Sequence record: PZ049694.1
From: a phage
Direction: 5' to 3' (one strand)
Length of the DNA: 64,000 nucleotides
Shown: piece by piece, positions 2,186-60,175 of the stretch
Numbering within the stretch: the first letter of the stretch is position 1
Layout of the letters: every line of letters starts with the position of its first letter
Translations under genes and position numbers: made by a program
The notes under the pieces: model-generated
Told to the model about the DNA's origin: nothing
Database searches by the model: none
Seen by the model: only the letters and a program-made list of their open reading frames with translations

Positions 2186-2680
2186 TCACAACTTATTAAT
2201 ATTTACTTTAATTCGCTTTCTTTTCTTGGAAGGAATTTGTTCTGGACCTTTATTTACTACTGCACCTGTAGTTGTTCCTGATGCAATAGCTTGAGGGCTG
2301 CCACCTGAATCACCAGCAACCATATCCTCAAATAAAGGGAGTTCTTTAAATATTTCTTTCTGCTGTTCTTCCGTAATGTTATAGCGTGAAGCTACAGCAC
2401 TCCAGGCAGACATCATTGAGGCCATTCCATTAAGACCTGGAACAGTGCTCATCATTCGCTTCATTGAACGAACTGAAGCATGAAAAGGTGTATAAGCCGC
2501 TTTCTCTTCAGGAGTGGAAGGACGTTTAAGAACACTTCCACGTTCATCGATGATTTTGGCTTCGTATGCTTTCCATTCGGTAAAAGGTTTTTGCATTAGT
2601 CGAATAAACTTATATGCGTAAACAGAATCTATTGCAGTGTTAATAATACCCATAGGTACCTCCTGAGTATATTTAATCAA
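2186..2680 (-). CDS. hypothetical protein (164 aa)
   Basis: Minus-strand ORF in the 61-to-sp interval, tightly packed with neighbours. Confidence 0.5.
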   Translation of the reverse strand: MIKYTQEVPMGIINTAIDSVYAYKFIRLMQKPFTEWKAYEAKIIDERGSVLKRPSTPEEKAAYTPFHASVRSMKRMMSTVPGLNGMASMMSAWSAVASRYNITEEQQKEIFKELPLFEDMVAGDSGGSPQAIASGTTTGAVVNKGPEQIPSKKRKRIKVNINKL

Positions 2681-2870
2681 TTACAAAGATTGCTTTGTCA
2701 CCATTTATATCTGTGACTTCATATGTAGTGCCTTCATACTGTGGAATATTCCAAATTACACCGTCATTAGCTTTTACGCTAATATGGCATTGGTGTTTTG
2801 AAATAACTTCATAATCTTCAAAACTTGTAAAAACACTAATTTTAGAACCAGTGCAAATTGCAGTAGTCAT
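2673..2870 (-). CDS. hypothetical protein (65 aa)
   Basis: Minus-strand ORF, 8-nt overlap with downstream gene. Confidence 0.4.
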   Translation of the reverse strand: MTTAICTGSKISVFTSFEDYEVISKHQCHISVKANDGVIWNIPQYEGTTYEVTDINGDKAIFVID

Positions 2871-2871
2871 T

Positions 2872-3531
2872 TTAACCTCGATTCATAAATGCATTAAATA
2901 TTTGGTCATCGACAGAAATTTCTAATTCGACTTCAATTGCTTCAGCCTTTTCTTCGGGTGGTAATTCGTATCCACACACTACAATTTTTTCATCGATATC
3001 AAAATATACAGAAGCAATATGATTAATGTTATTTTCAGTTAAGTCTAAATCAACATCAACATCTTTTTGACCTACACTTAGAGGATAACTAATACGGGTT
3101 ATTTTATTATCTTTAACAAAGAGTCCACCAACATACTCTGTACTACGTTTGAAGTTTACACGTTTCCGAATTGAAAGATATGATACATCTTTACCGTGAG
3201 CTCGGCTCATAGGACATAATGAATAGCTAGAATAGGAGATGTCAAATCCTACACCTTCAATATGAACCAACGCGTCATGATTAAACCAATTATAATCATA
3301 TGCCAAATCCATTATATTGTAATATGTGAAAGGCACAGGATTAACATCATATGTTGTACCTTTAAAATCTGCCCAGGCAACGATTTCGTTATCTTTAACA
3401 ATTACAAAAATTACACCAATATGATATCCGTTATTATTTTCATTCGGCGTTATATTATAACATTGCGCATTAGGAAATTTACCATATTTAAATGGCGCAT
3501 TTTTGTGCATGTAATAAATCATGTTATTCAC
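2872..3531 (-). CDS. hypothetical protein (219 aa)
   Basis: Minus-strand ORF between primase and spackle. Confidence 0.55.
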   Translation of the reverse strand: MNNMIYYMHKNAPFKYGKFPNAQCYNITPNENNNGYHIGVIFVIVKDNEIVAWADFKGTTYDVNPVPFTYYNIMDLAYDYNWFNHDALVHIEGVGFDISYSSYSLCPMSRAHGKDVSYLSIRKRVNFKRSTEYVGGLFVKDNKITRISYPLSVGQKDVDVDLDLTENNINHIASVYFDIDEKIVVCGYELPPEEKAEAIEVELEISVDDQIFNAFMNRG

Positions 3532-47661: not shown

Positions 47662-47875
47662 AAGGAATTTCCTCATCGGTGGCAAGGTCATATTCAACCA
47701 ATTGGATAGGCTCATTAATACCATATCCGCGTACAGTGATATCAGTTGTCGGATATTTTCCAGTAATATCACCCGTTCTAAATGCTTCAATGAATGATTG
47801 CTCGCCTGAGCAACTAAACCAGGCGGCAAAACATTTTAAAACATCTTCGGACCCTTCTATAATCAATTTAGCCAT
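47651..47875 (-). CDS. hypothetical protein (74 aa)
   Basis: Start overlaps the GrcA-like stop. Confidence 0.45.
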   Translation of the reverse strand: MAKLIIEGSEDVLKCFAAWFSCSGEQSFIEAFRTGDITGKYPTTDITVRGYGINEPIQLVEYDLATDEEIPYVD

Positions 47876-48237
47876 TATAGACTCTCAGTAAAGGTGCGAG
47901 CGATAACGTCGCGCTGCTGTTCCGGAGTCAGAGAGTTAAAGCGAACTGCATAACCAGATACACGGATGGTCAGCTGCGGATATTTTTCAGGATGCTTAAC
48001 TGCATCTTCCAGAGTTTCACGACGCAGAACGTTAACGTTCAGGTGTTGACCACCTTCAATTTTAACTTTAGGTTGTTGTTCAATTTCAATTTCACGAGCA
48101 TTCAAACCGTAGAAAATTTCCGGGTCTACAATATCGTCTTCTTTAAAAGTCTTAGAGACAATAATCCGGGCTTGAATACCGTCTTCAAAATAAATAGTGC
48201 CTTTATGTGCACCTTCAAGAATTTGATATGCTTTCAT
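47875..48237 (-). CDS. autonomous glycyl-radical cofactor (GrcA/YfiD-like)
   Basis: C-terminus [31 protein letters not shown] carries the RVSGY glycyl-radical motif, close to E. coli YfiD. Confidence 0.8.
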
Positions 48238-48243
48238 ATAACC

Positions 48244-48552
48244 TCAATTAGAAAATAAATTTATCCAAGATTTTTCTTTAATCAAAAATGGGTCGGAATT
48301 AAACGCCATTAAACTTTGAGTAATTAATCCCTTAAATGGTCCATCAATAAATTCCATTTTGAAATGCGGAATACTAGTCATCAACCGTGCATTAGGAGCA
48401 GTACAAAGAACCTGCTGACCTGCGAATGGACCTTTAGTCAAACGATATCGTTTAGGTTTAAAATGGTAAATCTCGTAATTTTCTACAAGAGCCCTTTTAT
48501 TGCATACTGGACTGTTATAACAATACTCAAAAACTTCAATAGTGGTCATCAT
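48244..48552 (-). CDS. hypothetical protein (about 102 aa)
   Basis: Trimmed to ATG forming ATGA overlap with upstream stop. Confidence 0.45.
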   Translation of the reverse strand: MMTTIEVFEYCYNSPVCNKRALVENYEIYHFKPKRYRLTKGPFAGQQVLCTAPNARLMTSIPHFKMEFIDGPFKGLITQSLMAFNSDPFLIKEKSWINLFSN

Positions 48553-49088
48553 TGCATTCCAATCACAAAAAATTGAGGACGAGCAGTACCGCCTATGCAA
48601 TATTTGCTTTTGCAGCAGTGCTGTACTGATTTAATATGGACATTGTAAATCTTATCCATATCAGGAGCTTTAATAGGCTCGTCAATTATGTATAGAATAC
48701 GAGAAAGCGTTAATCCACGGAATTTAGAACCTTCATTGCCAATAAAACTACGGACAGAATCAGTAAATAAACGGAATCGAATATCATCGCTAGAATAACG
48801 AGAAAATTCTTTTTTAATATTGCCAACAGAAATTTTAGCATAAGCTGAAGTATTAGAAAGAACAATAACTGTTCCACCGTCGTACAGCCAATTAACAGCA
48901 AAATTAGTTACTGCAGTCGATTTACCTGATTGTCTGCCGCCGTCTAAACGAAGTGTACAGTACTGCTTGAGTACGTCTTCAAATGGCGGGATATAACCAT
49001 TCTTACAAATTTCTTCTACTCTAGCATCAGAATGGTGTGTAAAAGCATTCATCAGGGATAGATAAGGCCCAGTTAAAAATGTTCTCAT
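48549..49088 (-). CDS. P-loop NTPase (about 179 aa)
   Basis: Walker A GGRQSGKST; start placed at MRTFLTG, excluding the GC-rich leader. Confidence 0.5.
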   Translation of the reverse strand: MRTFLTGPYLSLMNAFTHHSDARVEEICKNGYIPPFEDVLKQYCTLRLDGGRQSGKSTAVTNFAVNWLYDGGTVIVLSNTSAYAKISVGNIKKEFSRYSSDDIRFRLFTDSVRSFIGNEGSKFRGLTLSRILYIIDEPIKAPDMDKIYNVHIKSVQHCCKSKYCIGGTARPQFFVIGMQ

Positions 49089-49260
49089 TTTATTCTCTCT
49101 AGGTTGGGGCCATTCCGTGGCACATGTTAGGTCCTTCGACTCGCTATGTAAACCCATTACCGCACTTGGGCTCGACCTTATTACAGGTTGGAAAAGGTAC
49201 ATCACTCAGAGGACTCGACGTTCATAAGGAGAGGTTGCGTTTCCCTTTATTAGGCAAGAA

Positions 49261-49590
49261 TTATACTCTAGGCTTTTGAGCTTGTTTGGTATTGGATTCC
49301 CATGCGGCTTTGGTAATTTTGTTAGCGGCATAACCAAAGGCACTAGATAGAACACCTTTAGAGTTGAATACATCCAATCCAATAAGTACACTTGCTGTGT
49401 TAAATTTAGGAGCAAAGTACGCATTAGTTTTAGAAAGAGCTTTTTTCAATTCAGGGTCTTGAACCAAGCCATCAAAAACGCCTTTACCATTTACTTTATA
49501 TGTTACTTTGGGATTTTTAGCTTCTTCGATAGCAGCTTTCTGTTCCGCAGATAATGTAACTTCAGTAATAAATTCTTGATATGTTTTCAT
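49261..49590 (-). CDS. internal head protein (IPII-like)
   Basis: N-terminal capsid-targeting sequence MKTYQEFITE typical of T4 internal proteins; early promoter upstream. Confidence 0.65.
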   Translation of the reverse strand: MKTYQEFITEVTLSAEQKAAIEEAKNPKVTYKVNGKGVFDGLVQDPELKKALSKTNAYFAPKFNTASVLIGLDVFNSKGVLSSAFGYAANKITKAAWESNTKQAQKPRV

Positions 49591-49620
49591 TTTTGTTTCC
49601 TTGTTTGTTTTGATAGAGTA

Positions 49621-49649
49621 ATTATACCATATTAATACTTAAGCGTAAA
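49621..49649 (-). promoter_or_regulatory. early-type sigma70 promoter
   Basis: Minus strand -35 TTTACG, 17-bp spacer, -10 TATAAT. Confidence 0.5.
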
Positions 49650-49681
49650 CTGTTTAAGCTTTACCATCGCAACCTTTTTCC

Positions 49682-50095
49682 TTAGTAAATTGATTTACCA
49701 TAGTATTTGTACCAAGTAGGACGTTGAGCAATTTTTTCATCTAAACGAGCTTGACTTATCGCAATGGACGCTTCGGTCGGGACATAATTATTACGAAATT
49801 CGGCAGGGATGTCGGAAATATCTTGGACAGTCGTGTCCTTGATTTTGAAACCACGTTTCAAGCATTCAGCGATTAGCTCGATTTGACGTAAACGTAAAAA
49901 TTCGAGTTTGTCGTAAAAGAATGTTACGTGACCTGTGCCTAAGATAAATGCTGGAGAGATTTTAAAATCCTTTACACGTTTACCGTTTTGAACATGTTTA
50001 CGGACTGCACCAAATACGCGTGGTAATTCACGATACTCAGCCATAAGATGTTGGTCGGTCAGTTCAGAAACAAGTGTTAAATTGATACGAGTCAT
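49682..50095 (-). CDS. denV: Endonuclease V (pyrimidine-dimer DNA glycosylase, DenV)
   Basis: [35 protein letters not shown] near-identical to remembered T4 DenV; start moved to internal ATG. Confidence 0.9.
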
Positions 50096-50122
50096 AATTT
50101 CCTCCAAGTAGTTGATGAATGT

Positions 50123-50152
50123 ATAGTATCAAAGTCCTTGGAGGAAGTAAAC
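50123..50152 (-). promoter_or_regulatory. early-type sigma70 promoter cassette upstream of denV
   Basis: Minus strand -35 GTTTAC, 18-bp spacer, -10 TACTAT. Confidence 0.45.
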
Positions 50153-50153
50153 A

Positions 50154-50354
50154 CTATTTTTCTGAAGCGCCTGAAATATATTTTTCAAGACGTTGTTTCA
50201 TCAGCGAACCGTTCTTGGCGATTTCTTCCGGTTTATCGCACATACGCAACAAGGCTTCAAGCTTAACGATATCACTGGTGCGTTCAAATTTGCGAGTATC
50301 TATCTTACTAGCAAGTTCAGAAATACGTGCTAATAGACTTTCGGCTTCAACCAA
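50154..50354 (-). CDS. hypothetical protein (66 aa)
   Basis: Minus-strand ORF; antisense plus-strand ORF also present. Confidence 0.4.
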   Translation of the reverse strand: MVEAESLLARISELASKIDTRKFERTSDIVKLEALLRMCDKPEEIAKNGSLMKQRLEKYISGASEK

Positions 50355-50431
50355 AGCTGCACCTAGCTTAGTTGCAAATGTGTCAGTAGCTTAGTTAAGA
50401 ATAGATTCTGATAAAAATTCACTATATGTTT

Positions 50432-50920
50432 TCATATATACGCTTTCCAAGTTCCTGTTTTAAATGTTGAGATTACGCGTTTAGCGCGATTAGGTGTCTG
50501 ACGATACCATTTAGATTGAGCTAGATTTACTGCCGCTTCATCCCAACGTTTCTGTTGAAGCATACGAAGAGAATTAGTAAAACCAGCGACGCCTGCTACG
50601 CCCATTTGGAAGACCATATTGACCAATGCACATCTACGAACCGCATCTAAAGAATCATATACCGGTTTAAGTTTAGCATTACCCAAGATTCCGCGAACGG
50701 CTTTATCAACGTCTTCATTAAATAGCTTTTCAGCCTCATCAAGGGTAATTGTACCGTTGCATTTACGTCCGATCATTCTGTCAAGTTCAGCTTTAGCTAC
50801 GGCTAAAGACGGGTTCTTTGTTACTAAATGACCTATGCCAATCGTCCAAAAGCCTTCAGTGTCTTTGTATAAAGTCAGTCTAAGACCTTCGTCATTACGA
50901 AGCATTTCAAATATATTCAT
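50432..50920 (-). CDS. e: lysozyme (endolysin, gene e)
   Basis: [32 protein letters not shown] with catalytic E11/D20/T26 context as in T4 lysozyme; start moved to internal ATG. Confidence 0.92.
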
Positions 50921-50954
50921 AATACCTCCCACGTTTATAGGAGGTATTTATTAC

Positions 50955-51413
50955 TTATAGGAGGGTAGTGAGCACCTTATATAATGATTTGCCCATTACA
51001 TATTCCCATTGAGAAGGTTTAATTAAAGCGAATGCATCAAATTCAGGAATCTGACGTCCGTCTGGGAATGTATGATAGGAATTACAAACACTGTTTCTGA
51101 ATTGCTCGTGCTCTACAGGGATGGTATATAGGAACAGATGAATATTCTTATTGTCTGAGTAATGATGTTCACCTAGGTCTTTCAGGAAGGCAGGGTCATA
51201 TTGTGTAAACCCAGTTTCTTCTTCGCATTCACGAATAGCGGCTTCAATAGGAGATTCGCCAGGCTCGACACGTCCTTTAGGAATATCCCACCGATGAGCT
51301 AAAGAACCTTTAGGACGAGAACCAGTTACACGCCCCATGAATAATTCTTTATCTTCGGTAAGGAAAATAATACCGGCTGATAGTTCTTTCACTTTATTTT
51401 TCTTACTCATCAT
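50955..51413 (-). CDS. nudE: Nudix hydrolase (NudE-like)
   Basis: Nudix box GRVEPGESPIEAAIRECEEETGF. Confidence 0.7.
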   Translation of the reverse strand: MMSKKNKVKELSAGIIFLTEDKELFMGRVTGSRPKGSLAHRWDIPKGRVEPGESPIEAAIRECEEETGFTQYDPAFLKDLGEHHYSDNKNIHLFLYTIPVEHEQFRNSVCNSYHTFPDGRQIPEFDAFALIKPSQWEYVMGKSLYKVLTTLL

Positions 51414-60020: not shown

Positions 60021-60097
<77 letters not shown>

Positions 60098-60100
60098 GAT

Positions 60101-60175
60101 TGGTGACCCTGGCTGGTTTCGATCCAGCTACCTATCAGTTATGAGCTGACAGCTCTCCCATTGAGCTACAGGGCC
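60101..60175 (-). tRNA. tRNA with CAU anticodon (Ile-lysidine type or Met)
   Basis: 75 nt cloverleaf: acceptor GGCCCTG/CAGGGTC, D-arm GCTC...GAGC, anticodon loop CTCATAA, T-arm GCTGG...CCAGC, encoded CCA. Confidence 0.8.

Follow-up and report, generated by a model that had tools for sequence, protein, structure and literature searches.

What kind of sequence fills the 172 nucleotides (nt; positions 49089-49260) between the P-loop protein gene vs.8 and an internal-protein-like gene in the phage sequence record PZ049694.1? The block could be a coding extension of vs.8, a regulatory leader, the remnant of an acquired element or a structured RNA, and the last three of these had been proposed in an earlier note made from the letters of the sequence. 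We analysed the block within the whole 64,000-nt stretch of DNA (hereafter the window) and in its homologs. The results show that it is a non-coding block with a three-way junction that is selected for pairing on the gene strand, that is portable across at least six phage lineages, and that typically travels with transfer RNA (tRNA) genes. The idea of a structured RNA held as regards a conserved fold supported by covariation, but the structure consists of a junction of about 46 nt at the centre of the block (49145-49200, minus strand) plus lineage-specific hairpins, and not of all 172 nt.

The junction was defined from alignment A1, which contains 44 distinct instances that were gathered by sequence patterns and BLAST and filtered for at least three of the four pairs in helix P1. 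This alignment is the basis of the pair counts and of covariance model R1, which derives from phages other than the source phage. In the source phage, the core is composed of the following parts.

49145-49200, minus strand: match to covariance model R1, covering the junction core and short flanks (77.2 bits, E 1e-22); it is the only match, and there is no second copy, in the 64-kb window
49189-49191, minus strand: 5' strand of P1, CCA, which abuts P2 with zero joining nt and pairs with U49156, G49154 and G49153
49175-49188, minus strand: hairpin P2, ACCU-GUAAUA-AGGU, fully paired in 44/44 instances
49157-49174, minus strand: junction strand CGA-GC[CCAAGU]GC-GGUAA, comprising J2/3 (C-N-A), P3 and J3/1 (GGUAA), in invariant or nearly invariant alignment columns
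49153-49156, minus strand: 3' strand of P1, U-(G)-G-G, in which G49155 is the invariant bulged G (G in every true instance)

The family form of P2 is [A/G]CCU-GURRNA-AGG[U/C], with four base pairs (bp) and a hexaloop of consensus G-U-R-R-N-A. P3 is a mini-hairpin with the pairs G49171-C49162 and C49170-G49163, and its family form is either a G-C and a C-G pair around CNAAGN or, in some variants, a 3-bp stem closed by a loop of 3-4 nt. The joining strands C-N-A and GGUAA hardly vary, and the module contains about 30 nearly invariant nucleotides in total. The nucleotide between GGUAA and the bulged G is the partner of the final base in the 5' strand of P1, and the bulged G is present in all true instances, even in those recovered with patterns that do not specify this position. 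A register of P1 without the bulged G was rejected, since only the bulged-G register pairs in every lineage. A local GNRA hairpin, GCG-GUAA-CGC, was also rejected, as it is possible only in the 45-kb phage Ivi and the metagenomic contig L335, whereas the bulged-G register pairs everywhere. By eye, a variable hairpin of unrelated sequence, P0, ends 0-8 nt 5' of P1 in nearly every lineage. Phage PEi20 (L021 5089-5255) and a related contig (L025 9016-9183) contain the motif as a tandem pair with about 113 nt between the copies; in the second of these, the junction strand is shortened, CAG[U/C]CCGCG[A/G]CGGUAA, and P2 has a G-C closing pair.

The strongest signal of covariation comes from P1, whose three innermost pairs have two to five pair types apiece and 0-1 unpaired sequences. 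Pair 12-45 occurs as AU (24), UA (8), UG (7), CG (4) and GC (1), and pair 11-47 as CG (28), GC (7), UA (7), AU (1) and GU (1), both with no unpaired sequence; pair 10-48 occurs as CG (36) and GC (7) with one sequence unpaired. The fourth pair, 9-49, is formed in 29/44 instances and unpaired in 15. The proportion of paired cells was 88.8%, as compared to 76.8% in column shuffles, with none of 500 shuffles reaching as high a value, and changes on both sides were observed in 52 cells, while 19 were expected. Kinship among enterobacterial phages means that the significance from the shuffles overstates independence. A fairer control is to slide the 3' partners by 1-3 columns, which left 28-43% of the cells paired (36-41% for a slide of one column). 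When the extraction was repeated without the P1 filter, it yielded one extra regular-expression match with an unrelated junction strand, and the filter did therefore not create the pairing signal.

The closing pair of P2 is A-U in 42 instances and G-C in two, and the remaining P2 pairs are invariant. The hairpin P3 is retained in the variants GCC-UUUU-GGC (L386), GCG-CAA-CGC (L418) and GCC-CGU-GGC (L431), as well as in GUC-CGC-GAC and GCC-CGC-GGC from the second copies in L021 and L025. Three P1 positions have G-U pairs (UG 7, GU 11 and GU 1), which would be A-C mismatches on the opposite strand. Since they are tolerated on the minus strand only, the selected molecule is the RNA of the gene strand. 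Consistently, the orientation of the motif is that of the neighbouring genes or tRNAs at the loci checked.

To describe the distribution, a distant BLAST search was run with a block of 181 nt, and 1,033 phage records were matched. The identity was about 95% in the Mosigviruses and, for T4-like phages of Klebsiella, Enterobacter and Yersinia, 80-88% across the greater part of the block, whereas the Tequatroviruses, including T4, were about 82% identical over the vs.8-proximal 107 nt only. A stretch of about 40 nt was 92-97% identical in unrelated phages, namely the 45-kb phage Ivi and the rV5-like phages FV3 and magaca; the two copies inspected, those of FV3 and Ivi, are placed in long intergenic regions and oriented as the flanking genes. 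The 46-nt core was identified in 1,064 of 50,697 phage records, which represent T4-like, Vequintavirus, Phapecoctavirus and N4-like phages and two siphovirus-like groups. Pattern scans of IMG/VR and metagenomes revealed further lineages with the motif; loose half-patterns in IMG/VR were swamped by chance matches, and filtering was applied. The flanks of the core are unrelated between lineages. The earlier proposal of an acquired-element remnant is right only in part, and at the RNA level: a portable RNA module is common to unrelated phages. The note would also have abandoned its suggestion had neither conservation nor stable structure been found; the block is conserved and its pairing is supported by covariation.

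No true instance was found in bacteria or archaea when one genome per species from 185,579 species was scanned, only coincidental coding matches (for example, in a Rhizobium gene and groES-like genes), and a search of 5,426 complete E. coli genomes gave no match to the core. An origin of the core from the host was rejected on the basis of these scans. The element seems to be restricted to phages, and nearly all of these infect Enterobacterales. A few records with the motif have other host labels, among them MG065666, "Campylobacter phage A12a" (135 kb), and the "Pseudomonas phages" PsgM02F, PsgM04F and vB_PSGBLB0006. The sizes of these genomes are typical of Vequintavirus, T4-like or Phapecoctavirus coliphages, and the host labels may be unreliable. 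Within the window, no antisense targets of the core were identified.

The genomic surroundings of the motif differ between lineages, as seen in the following loci.

DE16 (Phapecoctavirus): between tRNA-Thr and tRNA-Gly, on the same strand
Pylas (N4-like): after six tRNAs, in a stretch of 1.5 kb that is largely non-coding
FV3, L018, L290 and L416 (Vequintavirus and relatives): upstream of the tRNA array
L383 (metagenomic): on the same strand as a tRNA and about 130 nt after it
L431 (metagenomic): 33 nt after tRNA-Ser and followed by a terminator-like hairpin (by eye)
L381 (metagenomic): about 160 nt after a tRNA, on the same strand
L018 (Vequintavirus relative): flanked by strong promoter-like sites, 76 nt upstream (11/12) and 47 nt downstream (10/12)
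Ivi (45-kb phage): after the endolysin gene, with a promoter-like site 12 nt later
L335 (metagenomic): after an endolysin-like gene, with a 13-bp intrinsic terminator about 50 nt later
SF (T4-like; L003 2247-2301 and 2742-2797): one copy on each side of an extra internal-protein-like gene
PEi20 and L025 (T4-like): two tandem copies

Neighbouring tRNAs on the same strand were found in Pylas, DE16, FV3, L018, L306, L383, L431 and L381. In the T4-like phages, the motif always precedes a start codon by 93-119 nt and has conserved hairpins on its 3' side; in T4 itself, it is placed in the vs.8 leader, 6 kb from the tRNA cluster.

Some of these loci contain other elements. Long inverted repeats, ACAACAGGUAAGAGCAUUG ... 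CAGUGCUCUUUCCGUUGUG, flank the motif in the N4-like Klebsiella phage Pylas, the Phapecoctavirus DE16 and related contigs (L339 ~2500-3300, L340 2430-2700, L011 and L306). Each inverted repeat brackets an insert of 45-80 nt, one of which ends like a tRNA T-arm, and the motif RNA may be enclosed by an outer stem, GUUGUGAC/GUCACAAC in L011 and GUUGUGAA/UUCACAAC in DE16. The repeats and stems could belong to a larger RNA or be stems for processing. The motif-bearing array of Pylas contains a tRNA with the anticodon CUA (L339 1836-1911; ARAGORN and the record), labelled tRNA-Pyl, which is a putative amber suppressor. In Ivi (L007 ~2364-2480), the promoter-like site just after the motif (2480-2452, minus strand) is followed by a unit of about 60 nt with CACCUCCU, which ends in a terminator-like hairpin and a U-run; it is annotated as a coding sequence for 38 amino acids and looks like a small RNA gene. 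A loose pattern also retrieved an unrelated recurrent element, ..CCUAAG CCUGUCGCAAGG CGGUUGGAUGACC UGCGGUAACGCA GUUAGACC.., from the IMG/VR contigs L351, L380, L356, L423, L357, L368, L370, L352 and L343, which looks like three small hairpins closed by CUAA/UUAG, i.e., a four-way junction.

The surroundings of the block in the window are those of a Mosigvirus-type T4-like phage, and the best match, 97.5% identical over 1.3 kb, is JQD51. All genes around the block are encoded on the minus strand and are given here in the order of transcription.

50955-51413, minus strand: nudE
50432-50932, minus strand: the e lysozyme gene
between the e lysozyme gene and denV, minus strand: an open reading frame (ORF) of 66 amino acids
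49682-50107, minus strand: denV
49621-49649, minus strand: promoter-like site (49649-49621) upstream of the internal-protein-like gene
49261-49590, minus strand: internal-protein-like gene upstream of the block, with the capsid-targeting sequence MKTYQEFITE (phrog_3966 and a weak match to internal head proteins)
49089-49260, minus strand: the whole non-coding block, the 5' untranslated region of vs.8 in the source phage (ORF map, GC content and conservation among T4-like phages)
49086-49100, minus strand: ribosome-binding site AGAGAGAA (49093-49100) and true ATG of vs.8 (49088-49086); MRTFLTGPYLSLMNAF-type N-termini are kept across phages, and phrog_1488 begins at residue 3 of the 179-residue form
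48549-49088, minus strand: vs.8, downstream of the RNA and not part of it, a P-loop protein that resembles the terminase ATPase domain (phrog_1488, E 1e-77; weak matches to terminase large subunits; annotated as vs.8 in relatives)
after vs.8, minus strand: vs.7, vs.6 and onward

The earlier note was accurate in placing the block between the P-loop gene and the gene resembling that of internal protein II: 49089-49260 is the exact interval, 172 nt, between the stop codon of the internal-protein-like ORF and the conserved start of vs.8. It had also described the block as rich in G and C (GC) in AT-rich surroundings, which agrees with a GC content of 0.471, as compared to a mean of 0.371 (standard deviation 0.038) for all 172-nt windows of the 64-kb window; 0.64% of these are equally GC-rich. 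The interval between denV and vs.8 (49261-50400 in the window versus L002, L003 and L004) is a hot spot for variation in gene content, with one to three different internal-protein-like genes in close relatives, length differences of 0.3-1 kb and a flanking identity of 95-97%. Further downstream, vs.6 (47875-48237, minus strand) encodes a stand-alone glycyl-radical protein of 120 amino acids with an RVSGY motif; the T4 annotation names it autonomous glycyl radical cofactor GrcA. Vs.8 is terminase-ATPase-like and had a toxic effect if expressed together with Avs2 in a 2026 paper (PMC13601566).

The block is not protein-coding. The vs.8 frame is open up to a GTG at 49205, giving an ORF of 218 amino acids (48549-49205) that includes the extension quoted in the earlier note (...SSPSAVMGLHSESKDLTCATEWPQPREN-MRTF...), and the frame is likewise open in T4 and L403. 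This would agree with the T4 reference annotation, in which the block is an N-terminal extension of a Vs.8 protein of 219 amino acids. However, among the 22 distinct T4-like versions, the core is in frame 0 relative to the ATG in five, in frame 1 in eight and in frame 2 in nine, an in-frame stop is found between the core and the ATG in 19 of the 22, and the insertions and deletions in the block are not multiples of three. In JQD51, the closest relative, a TAA directly precedes the vs.8 ATG. The phrog_1488 profile, which has 177 positions, matches residues 3-179 of the short form, corresponding to 42-218 of the long ORF, so that the family profile begins at MRTF and the first 41 residues of the long ORF are not covered. 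In FV3, which has the same core, no start codon precedes it in the frame of the extension (by eye). Translation of the block as part of the P-loop protein is contradicted by these data and hardly credible, and the impression in the earlier note that the extension looks non-coding was correct. In the annotations, vs.8 of T4 (NC_000866 64253-64912; L005 3254-3913; 219 amino acids) starts inside the RNA block, and an internal-protein-like gene of SF (L003 2362-2754) also begins within such a block. The conserved starts, MRTFLTG... in Vs.8 and MKTYQEF... in the internal-protein-like protein, are located about 40-55 codons inside the annotated starts in T4 and SF.

The remainder of the block contains several features that are specific to the T4-like phages.

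49201-49234, minus strand: "variant A" 5' domain CCUCUCCUUAUGAACGUCGAGUCCUCUGAGUGAU, with an outer CUCA/UGAG pairing around a small GAAC...GUYC hairpin (33 distinct variant-A versions; pairing by eye)
49147-49151, minus strand: UUACA, a weak candidate for a pseudoknot partner of the P2 loop UGUAA (49181-49185), in T4-like phages only
49122-49149, minus strand: candidate hairpin P4, ACAU...AUGU, with the conserved loop segment (A/G)AUGGA (GAAGGAC in the source phage; alignment A2, by eye)
49109-49121, minus strand: hairpin P5, GCCA-CGGAA-UGGC, just 5' of the ribosome-binding site (GCC-ANGGAAN-GGC in all T4-like versions; by eye)
49124-49152, minus strand: sigma-70-like promoter match TTTACA-17-TAACAT, 3' of the core (9/12 matches)

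The conserved segment of variant A, CCUCUCCU(C/U)AUGAAC...GUYCCUCUGAGUGA, is located upstream of the core. By eye, L244, L375 and L401 have lost one base on each side (CUA/UAG) and kept the variant-A pairing. In its place, Tequatrovirus (T4) has "variant B", a plain hairpin CCUCAU...AUGAGG, which covaries to CCUUAU/AUAAGG in L314 (by eye). For the candidate pseudoknot, 19 distinct versions combine UGUAA with UUACA, two have UGUGA and UUACA, which gives a G-U pair, and one has UGUGA and UCACA, which is compensatory; the UUACA partner was not found in the lineages outside the T4-like phages. The P4 stem ACAU/AUGU is changed to ACAA/UUGU in L244, and RNAalifold suggests an alternative in which AUGU and GGAC pair with the 5' domain (ACGU and GUCC) instead. 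The long-range closing helix that it predicts between the 5' domain and the 3' segments GGAC, AUGU and GCCA shows almost no variation in the alignment. The P5 stem is invariant among the T4-like versions and thus shows no covariation. The sigma-70-like matches were not enriched over shuffled sequences (four found versus 2.3 expected), and no terminator-like site was detected in 48900-49800. Promoter-like sites after the motif in L018 and Ivi are strong ones.

Comparisons to known RNAs gave no identity for the block. The Rfam scan that the earlier note had suggested identified only two tRNAs near 60 kb in the 64-kb window when Rfam 15 was used at the gathering threshold, and permissive filters (E < 10) gave only chance-level matches to small nucleolar, long non-coding and small RNAs for the block and the FV3 locus. 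Models for self-cleaving ribozymes (hammerhead, twister, twister-sister, pistol, hatchet and HDV-like) had no match at E < 10 in the 551 nt analysed for the block or the 461 nt analysed for the FV3 locus. ARAGORN and Rfam RF00005 located tRNAs in the window at 60021-60175 only, and none at the block. Judged from its sequence, the element seems to belong among the small structured non-coding RNAs of phages, without a match in Rfam 15. No description was found in the literature on the core sequence, vs.8, the non-coding RNAs of T4 or the RNAs of phage tRNA clusters, although catalogues of viral motifs could list the element unnamed (PMC10690425).

Among the small RNAs of phages, the closest in context are rnaC and rnaD of T4 (species 1 and 2 RNAs), described as "RNAs of yet unknown functions" (PMC9697503). 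Like the motif outside the T4-like phages, they are small structured phage RNAs that are co-transcribed with tRNAs. However, they differ from the motif in sequence and structure, rnaC having a tRNA-like T-arm that the motif lacks, and the T4 region that contains them and the tRNAs (69000-74000) has no match to model R1. Hammerhead, twister and twister-sister ribozymes and purine-type riboswitches are of comparable size (about 45-60 nt), with a multi-helix junction and nearly invariant joining strands, but the joining strands of 0, 3 and 5 nt and the bulged G of the motif are unlike their cores. We take the resemblance of GCC-N-AAG-N-GC in the motif to the twister loop CCCAAGC to be superficial. 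Downstream genes that are consistently related, as for a riboswitch, were not found, the motif being followed by vs.8, internal-protein genes, tRNAs, promoters or terminators depending on the lineage.

The motif also has similarities to tRNA-Tyr of E. coli, in which positions 32-37 correspond to C-U-G-U-A-A in the P2 region. The variants of the P2 loop keep G-U-R plus a purine, i.e., a GUA (Tyr) or GUG (His) anticodon plus R37, and CGAGCC-AAAG in the motif resembles the D-arm CGAGCGGCCAAAG of the same tRNA. However, the C and U are paired in P2, giving a loop of six rather than seven nt, and the order of the elements is permuted. Similarities of GCGGUAA to the 530 loop of 16S rRNA and of GUAACAAGGU to its 1492-1506 region were set aside as probably due to chance. 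In E. coli, 3'ETS-leuZ is a functional RNA derived from a tRNA precursor that base-pairs with small RNAs. The motif in L431 recalls it by its position, 33 nt after tRNA-Ser and before a terminator-like hairpin, but no complementarity to a target was found for the motif.

About 30 near-invariant nucleotides amid changing surroundings, along with the occurrence of the motif without a downstream ORF, suggest that it is most likely an RNA domain in its own right. We consider it probable that the junction is an autonomous, portable RNA domain that is recognised by a conserved factor, a function that we infer from the comparisons. The folded junction would present its invariant nucleotides to a conserved partner, which may be a host or phage protein or an RNA and may be connected with tRNA handling or translation; any identification of this partner is speculative. 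The junction would act as an RNA itself, within the messenger RNA or after excision, and its likeliest roles would be those of a binding site or decoy, or of a recognition signal for processing. In the T4-like phages, it is located within the 5' untranslated region of vs.8, sometimes also before an internal-protein gene or as a tandem pair, and in other families it would be part of tRNA-array transcripts or of small units that stand alone. The association with tRNAs and the similarity of the P2 loop and CGAGCC-AAAG to tRNA-Tyr suggest, as a lead only, a link to tRNA handling or to tRNA-directed defences. Phage tRNA genes counter tRNA-directed host defences (PMC11555353).

Several points weigh against an autonomous RNA domain. 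The function of the core is wholly inferred. The minimum free energy was no better than that of shuffled sequences, either for the block on both strands or for 12 core-containing homologous segments (z from -1.2 to +1.7). On these sequences, the argument for structure is comparative rather than energetic: the folding and covariation analysis proposed in the earlier note found that P1 covaries in 44 distinct instances, though the folding energy is unremarkable, and folding probably requires tertiary contacts or a bound partner. Most nucleotides in the core are invariant, so that P2 and P3 rest on few variants. Recent horizontal transfer among enterobacterial phages could be the source of part of the conservation, and since searches by patterns and BLAST miss divergent members, the apparent invariance is partly an effect of ascertainment. 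Finally, the order of motif, hairpin, ribosome-binding site and gene in the T4-like phages also looks like a cis-regulatory leader.

In such a leader or riboswitch, the junction would be a metabolite or protein aptamer that controls vs.8 or the internal-protein genes via P4 and P5. The position of the motif before the start codon and the conserved hairpins that follow it in T4-like phages are consistent with this, as are the near-invariant junction nucleotides, which are typical of aptamers, and the two exclusive pairings of the AUGU segment, with P4 locally or with the 5' domain, as in an expression platform. However, at least six other lineages lack an ORF after the motif and have tRNAs, a promoter or a terminator there, the downstream genes are functionally unrelated (terminase-like ATPase and internal head proteins), and no riboswitch in Rfam matches. 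A leader or riboswitch is therefore unlikely, and the earlier idea of a regulatory leader is probably not correct in the sense of a leader specific to vs.8, because the motif elsewhere is placed in tRNA arrays or stand-alone units without a following ORF. It is doubtful whether the small junction, whose invariant core recalls hammerhead or twister, would instead be a self-cleaving ribozyme, or a site at which a host RNase cuts polycistronic or tRNA-array transcripts. The position between cistrons and beside tRNAs is common for ribozymes and processing signals, and a promoter-like site often follows, so that the motif is near the ends of upstream transcripts. Yet no known ribozyme model matches, even at E < 10, no cleavage site can be named, and in L335 and L431 the motif is inside short units that already end at terminator-like hairpins.

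A role at the DNA level, as a recombination substrate for gene shuffling, a plain promoter region or the relic of a mobile element, would recall the PeSL/PmSL cassettes of T4-type phages, which are modules of a promoter and a stem-loop that mediate modular shuffling (PMC2839356, PMC4122927). The block shares with these that it is a conserved intergenic module in hyperplastic regions of T4-type phages before variable small genes. The locus is plastic, with insertions of 0.3-1 kb containing internal-protein-like genes in relatives, SF has a copy on both sides of its extra internal-protein-like gene, and TTTACA-17-TAACAT in the block is similar to the PeSL promoters of T4 and PST, TTTACW-N17-TAYWAT (PMC4122927). 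However, PeSLs are many-copy terminator-like stem-loops with an early promoter, whereas the block contains a three-way junction in a single copy per 64 kb, with covariation at the RNA level and no terminator-like site, and its sole promoter match (9/12, with TAACAT as the -10 element) is weak and not enriched over shuffles. Moreover, the compensatory changes and the G-U pairs on one strand indicate selection on RNA pairing, and the same core is found in unrelated phage families without common flanks. A DNA cassette is contradicted by these data and very unlikely.

A more specific proposal, which is unlikely, is that the junction might be a new class of phage RNA for anti-defence or host takeover, either a decoy for a tRNA-directed host factor, formed by the P2 loop (C-U-G-U-R-R) and the tRNA-Tyr-like strand, or a new class of self-cleaving ribozyme. 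The factor captured by a decoy could be, among others, an anticodon nuclease, a tRNA-modifying enzyme with specificity for U-G-U or an effector of the retron-Eco7 type, by which tRNA-Tyr is depleted (PMC11555353). Both versions would account for the association of the motif with tRNA arrays and for its site in T4-like phages at the head of the vs cluster, which includes vs.8 and encodes the anti-Thoeris sponge TadIV-1 (Vs.3; PMC13243611).

If the junction is indeed an autonomous RNA domain, about 2% of the sequenced phage genomes would carry an undescribed and strongly constrained RNA domain. The carriers would include T4, T2 and RB-type, rV5-like, phi92-like and N4-like phages, and the motif would be one that moves between unrelated phages with tRNA arrays. 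T4 is the best-studied virulent phage, and its reference genome annotates the element as the first ~40 codons of vs.8; the gene models of vs.8 would be corrected, which is relevant to the study of vs.8 as an activator of Avs2. The element would also provide a concrete, mutable target for the role of the non-tRNA RNAs in phage tRNA clusters, a question that has been open since rnaC and rnaD, and it would be a candidate for a counter-defence that acts through RNA, or else for a catalytic or ligand-binding fold of a new kind.

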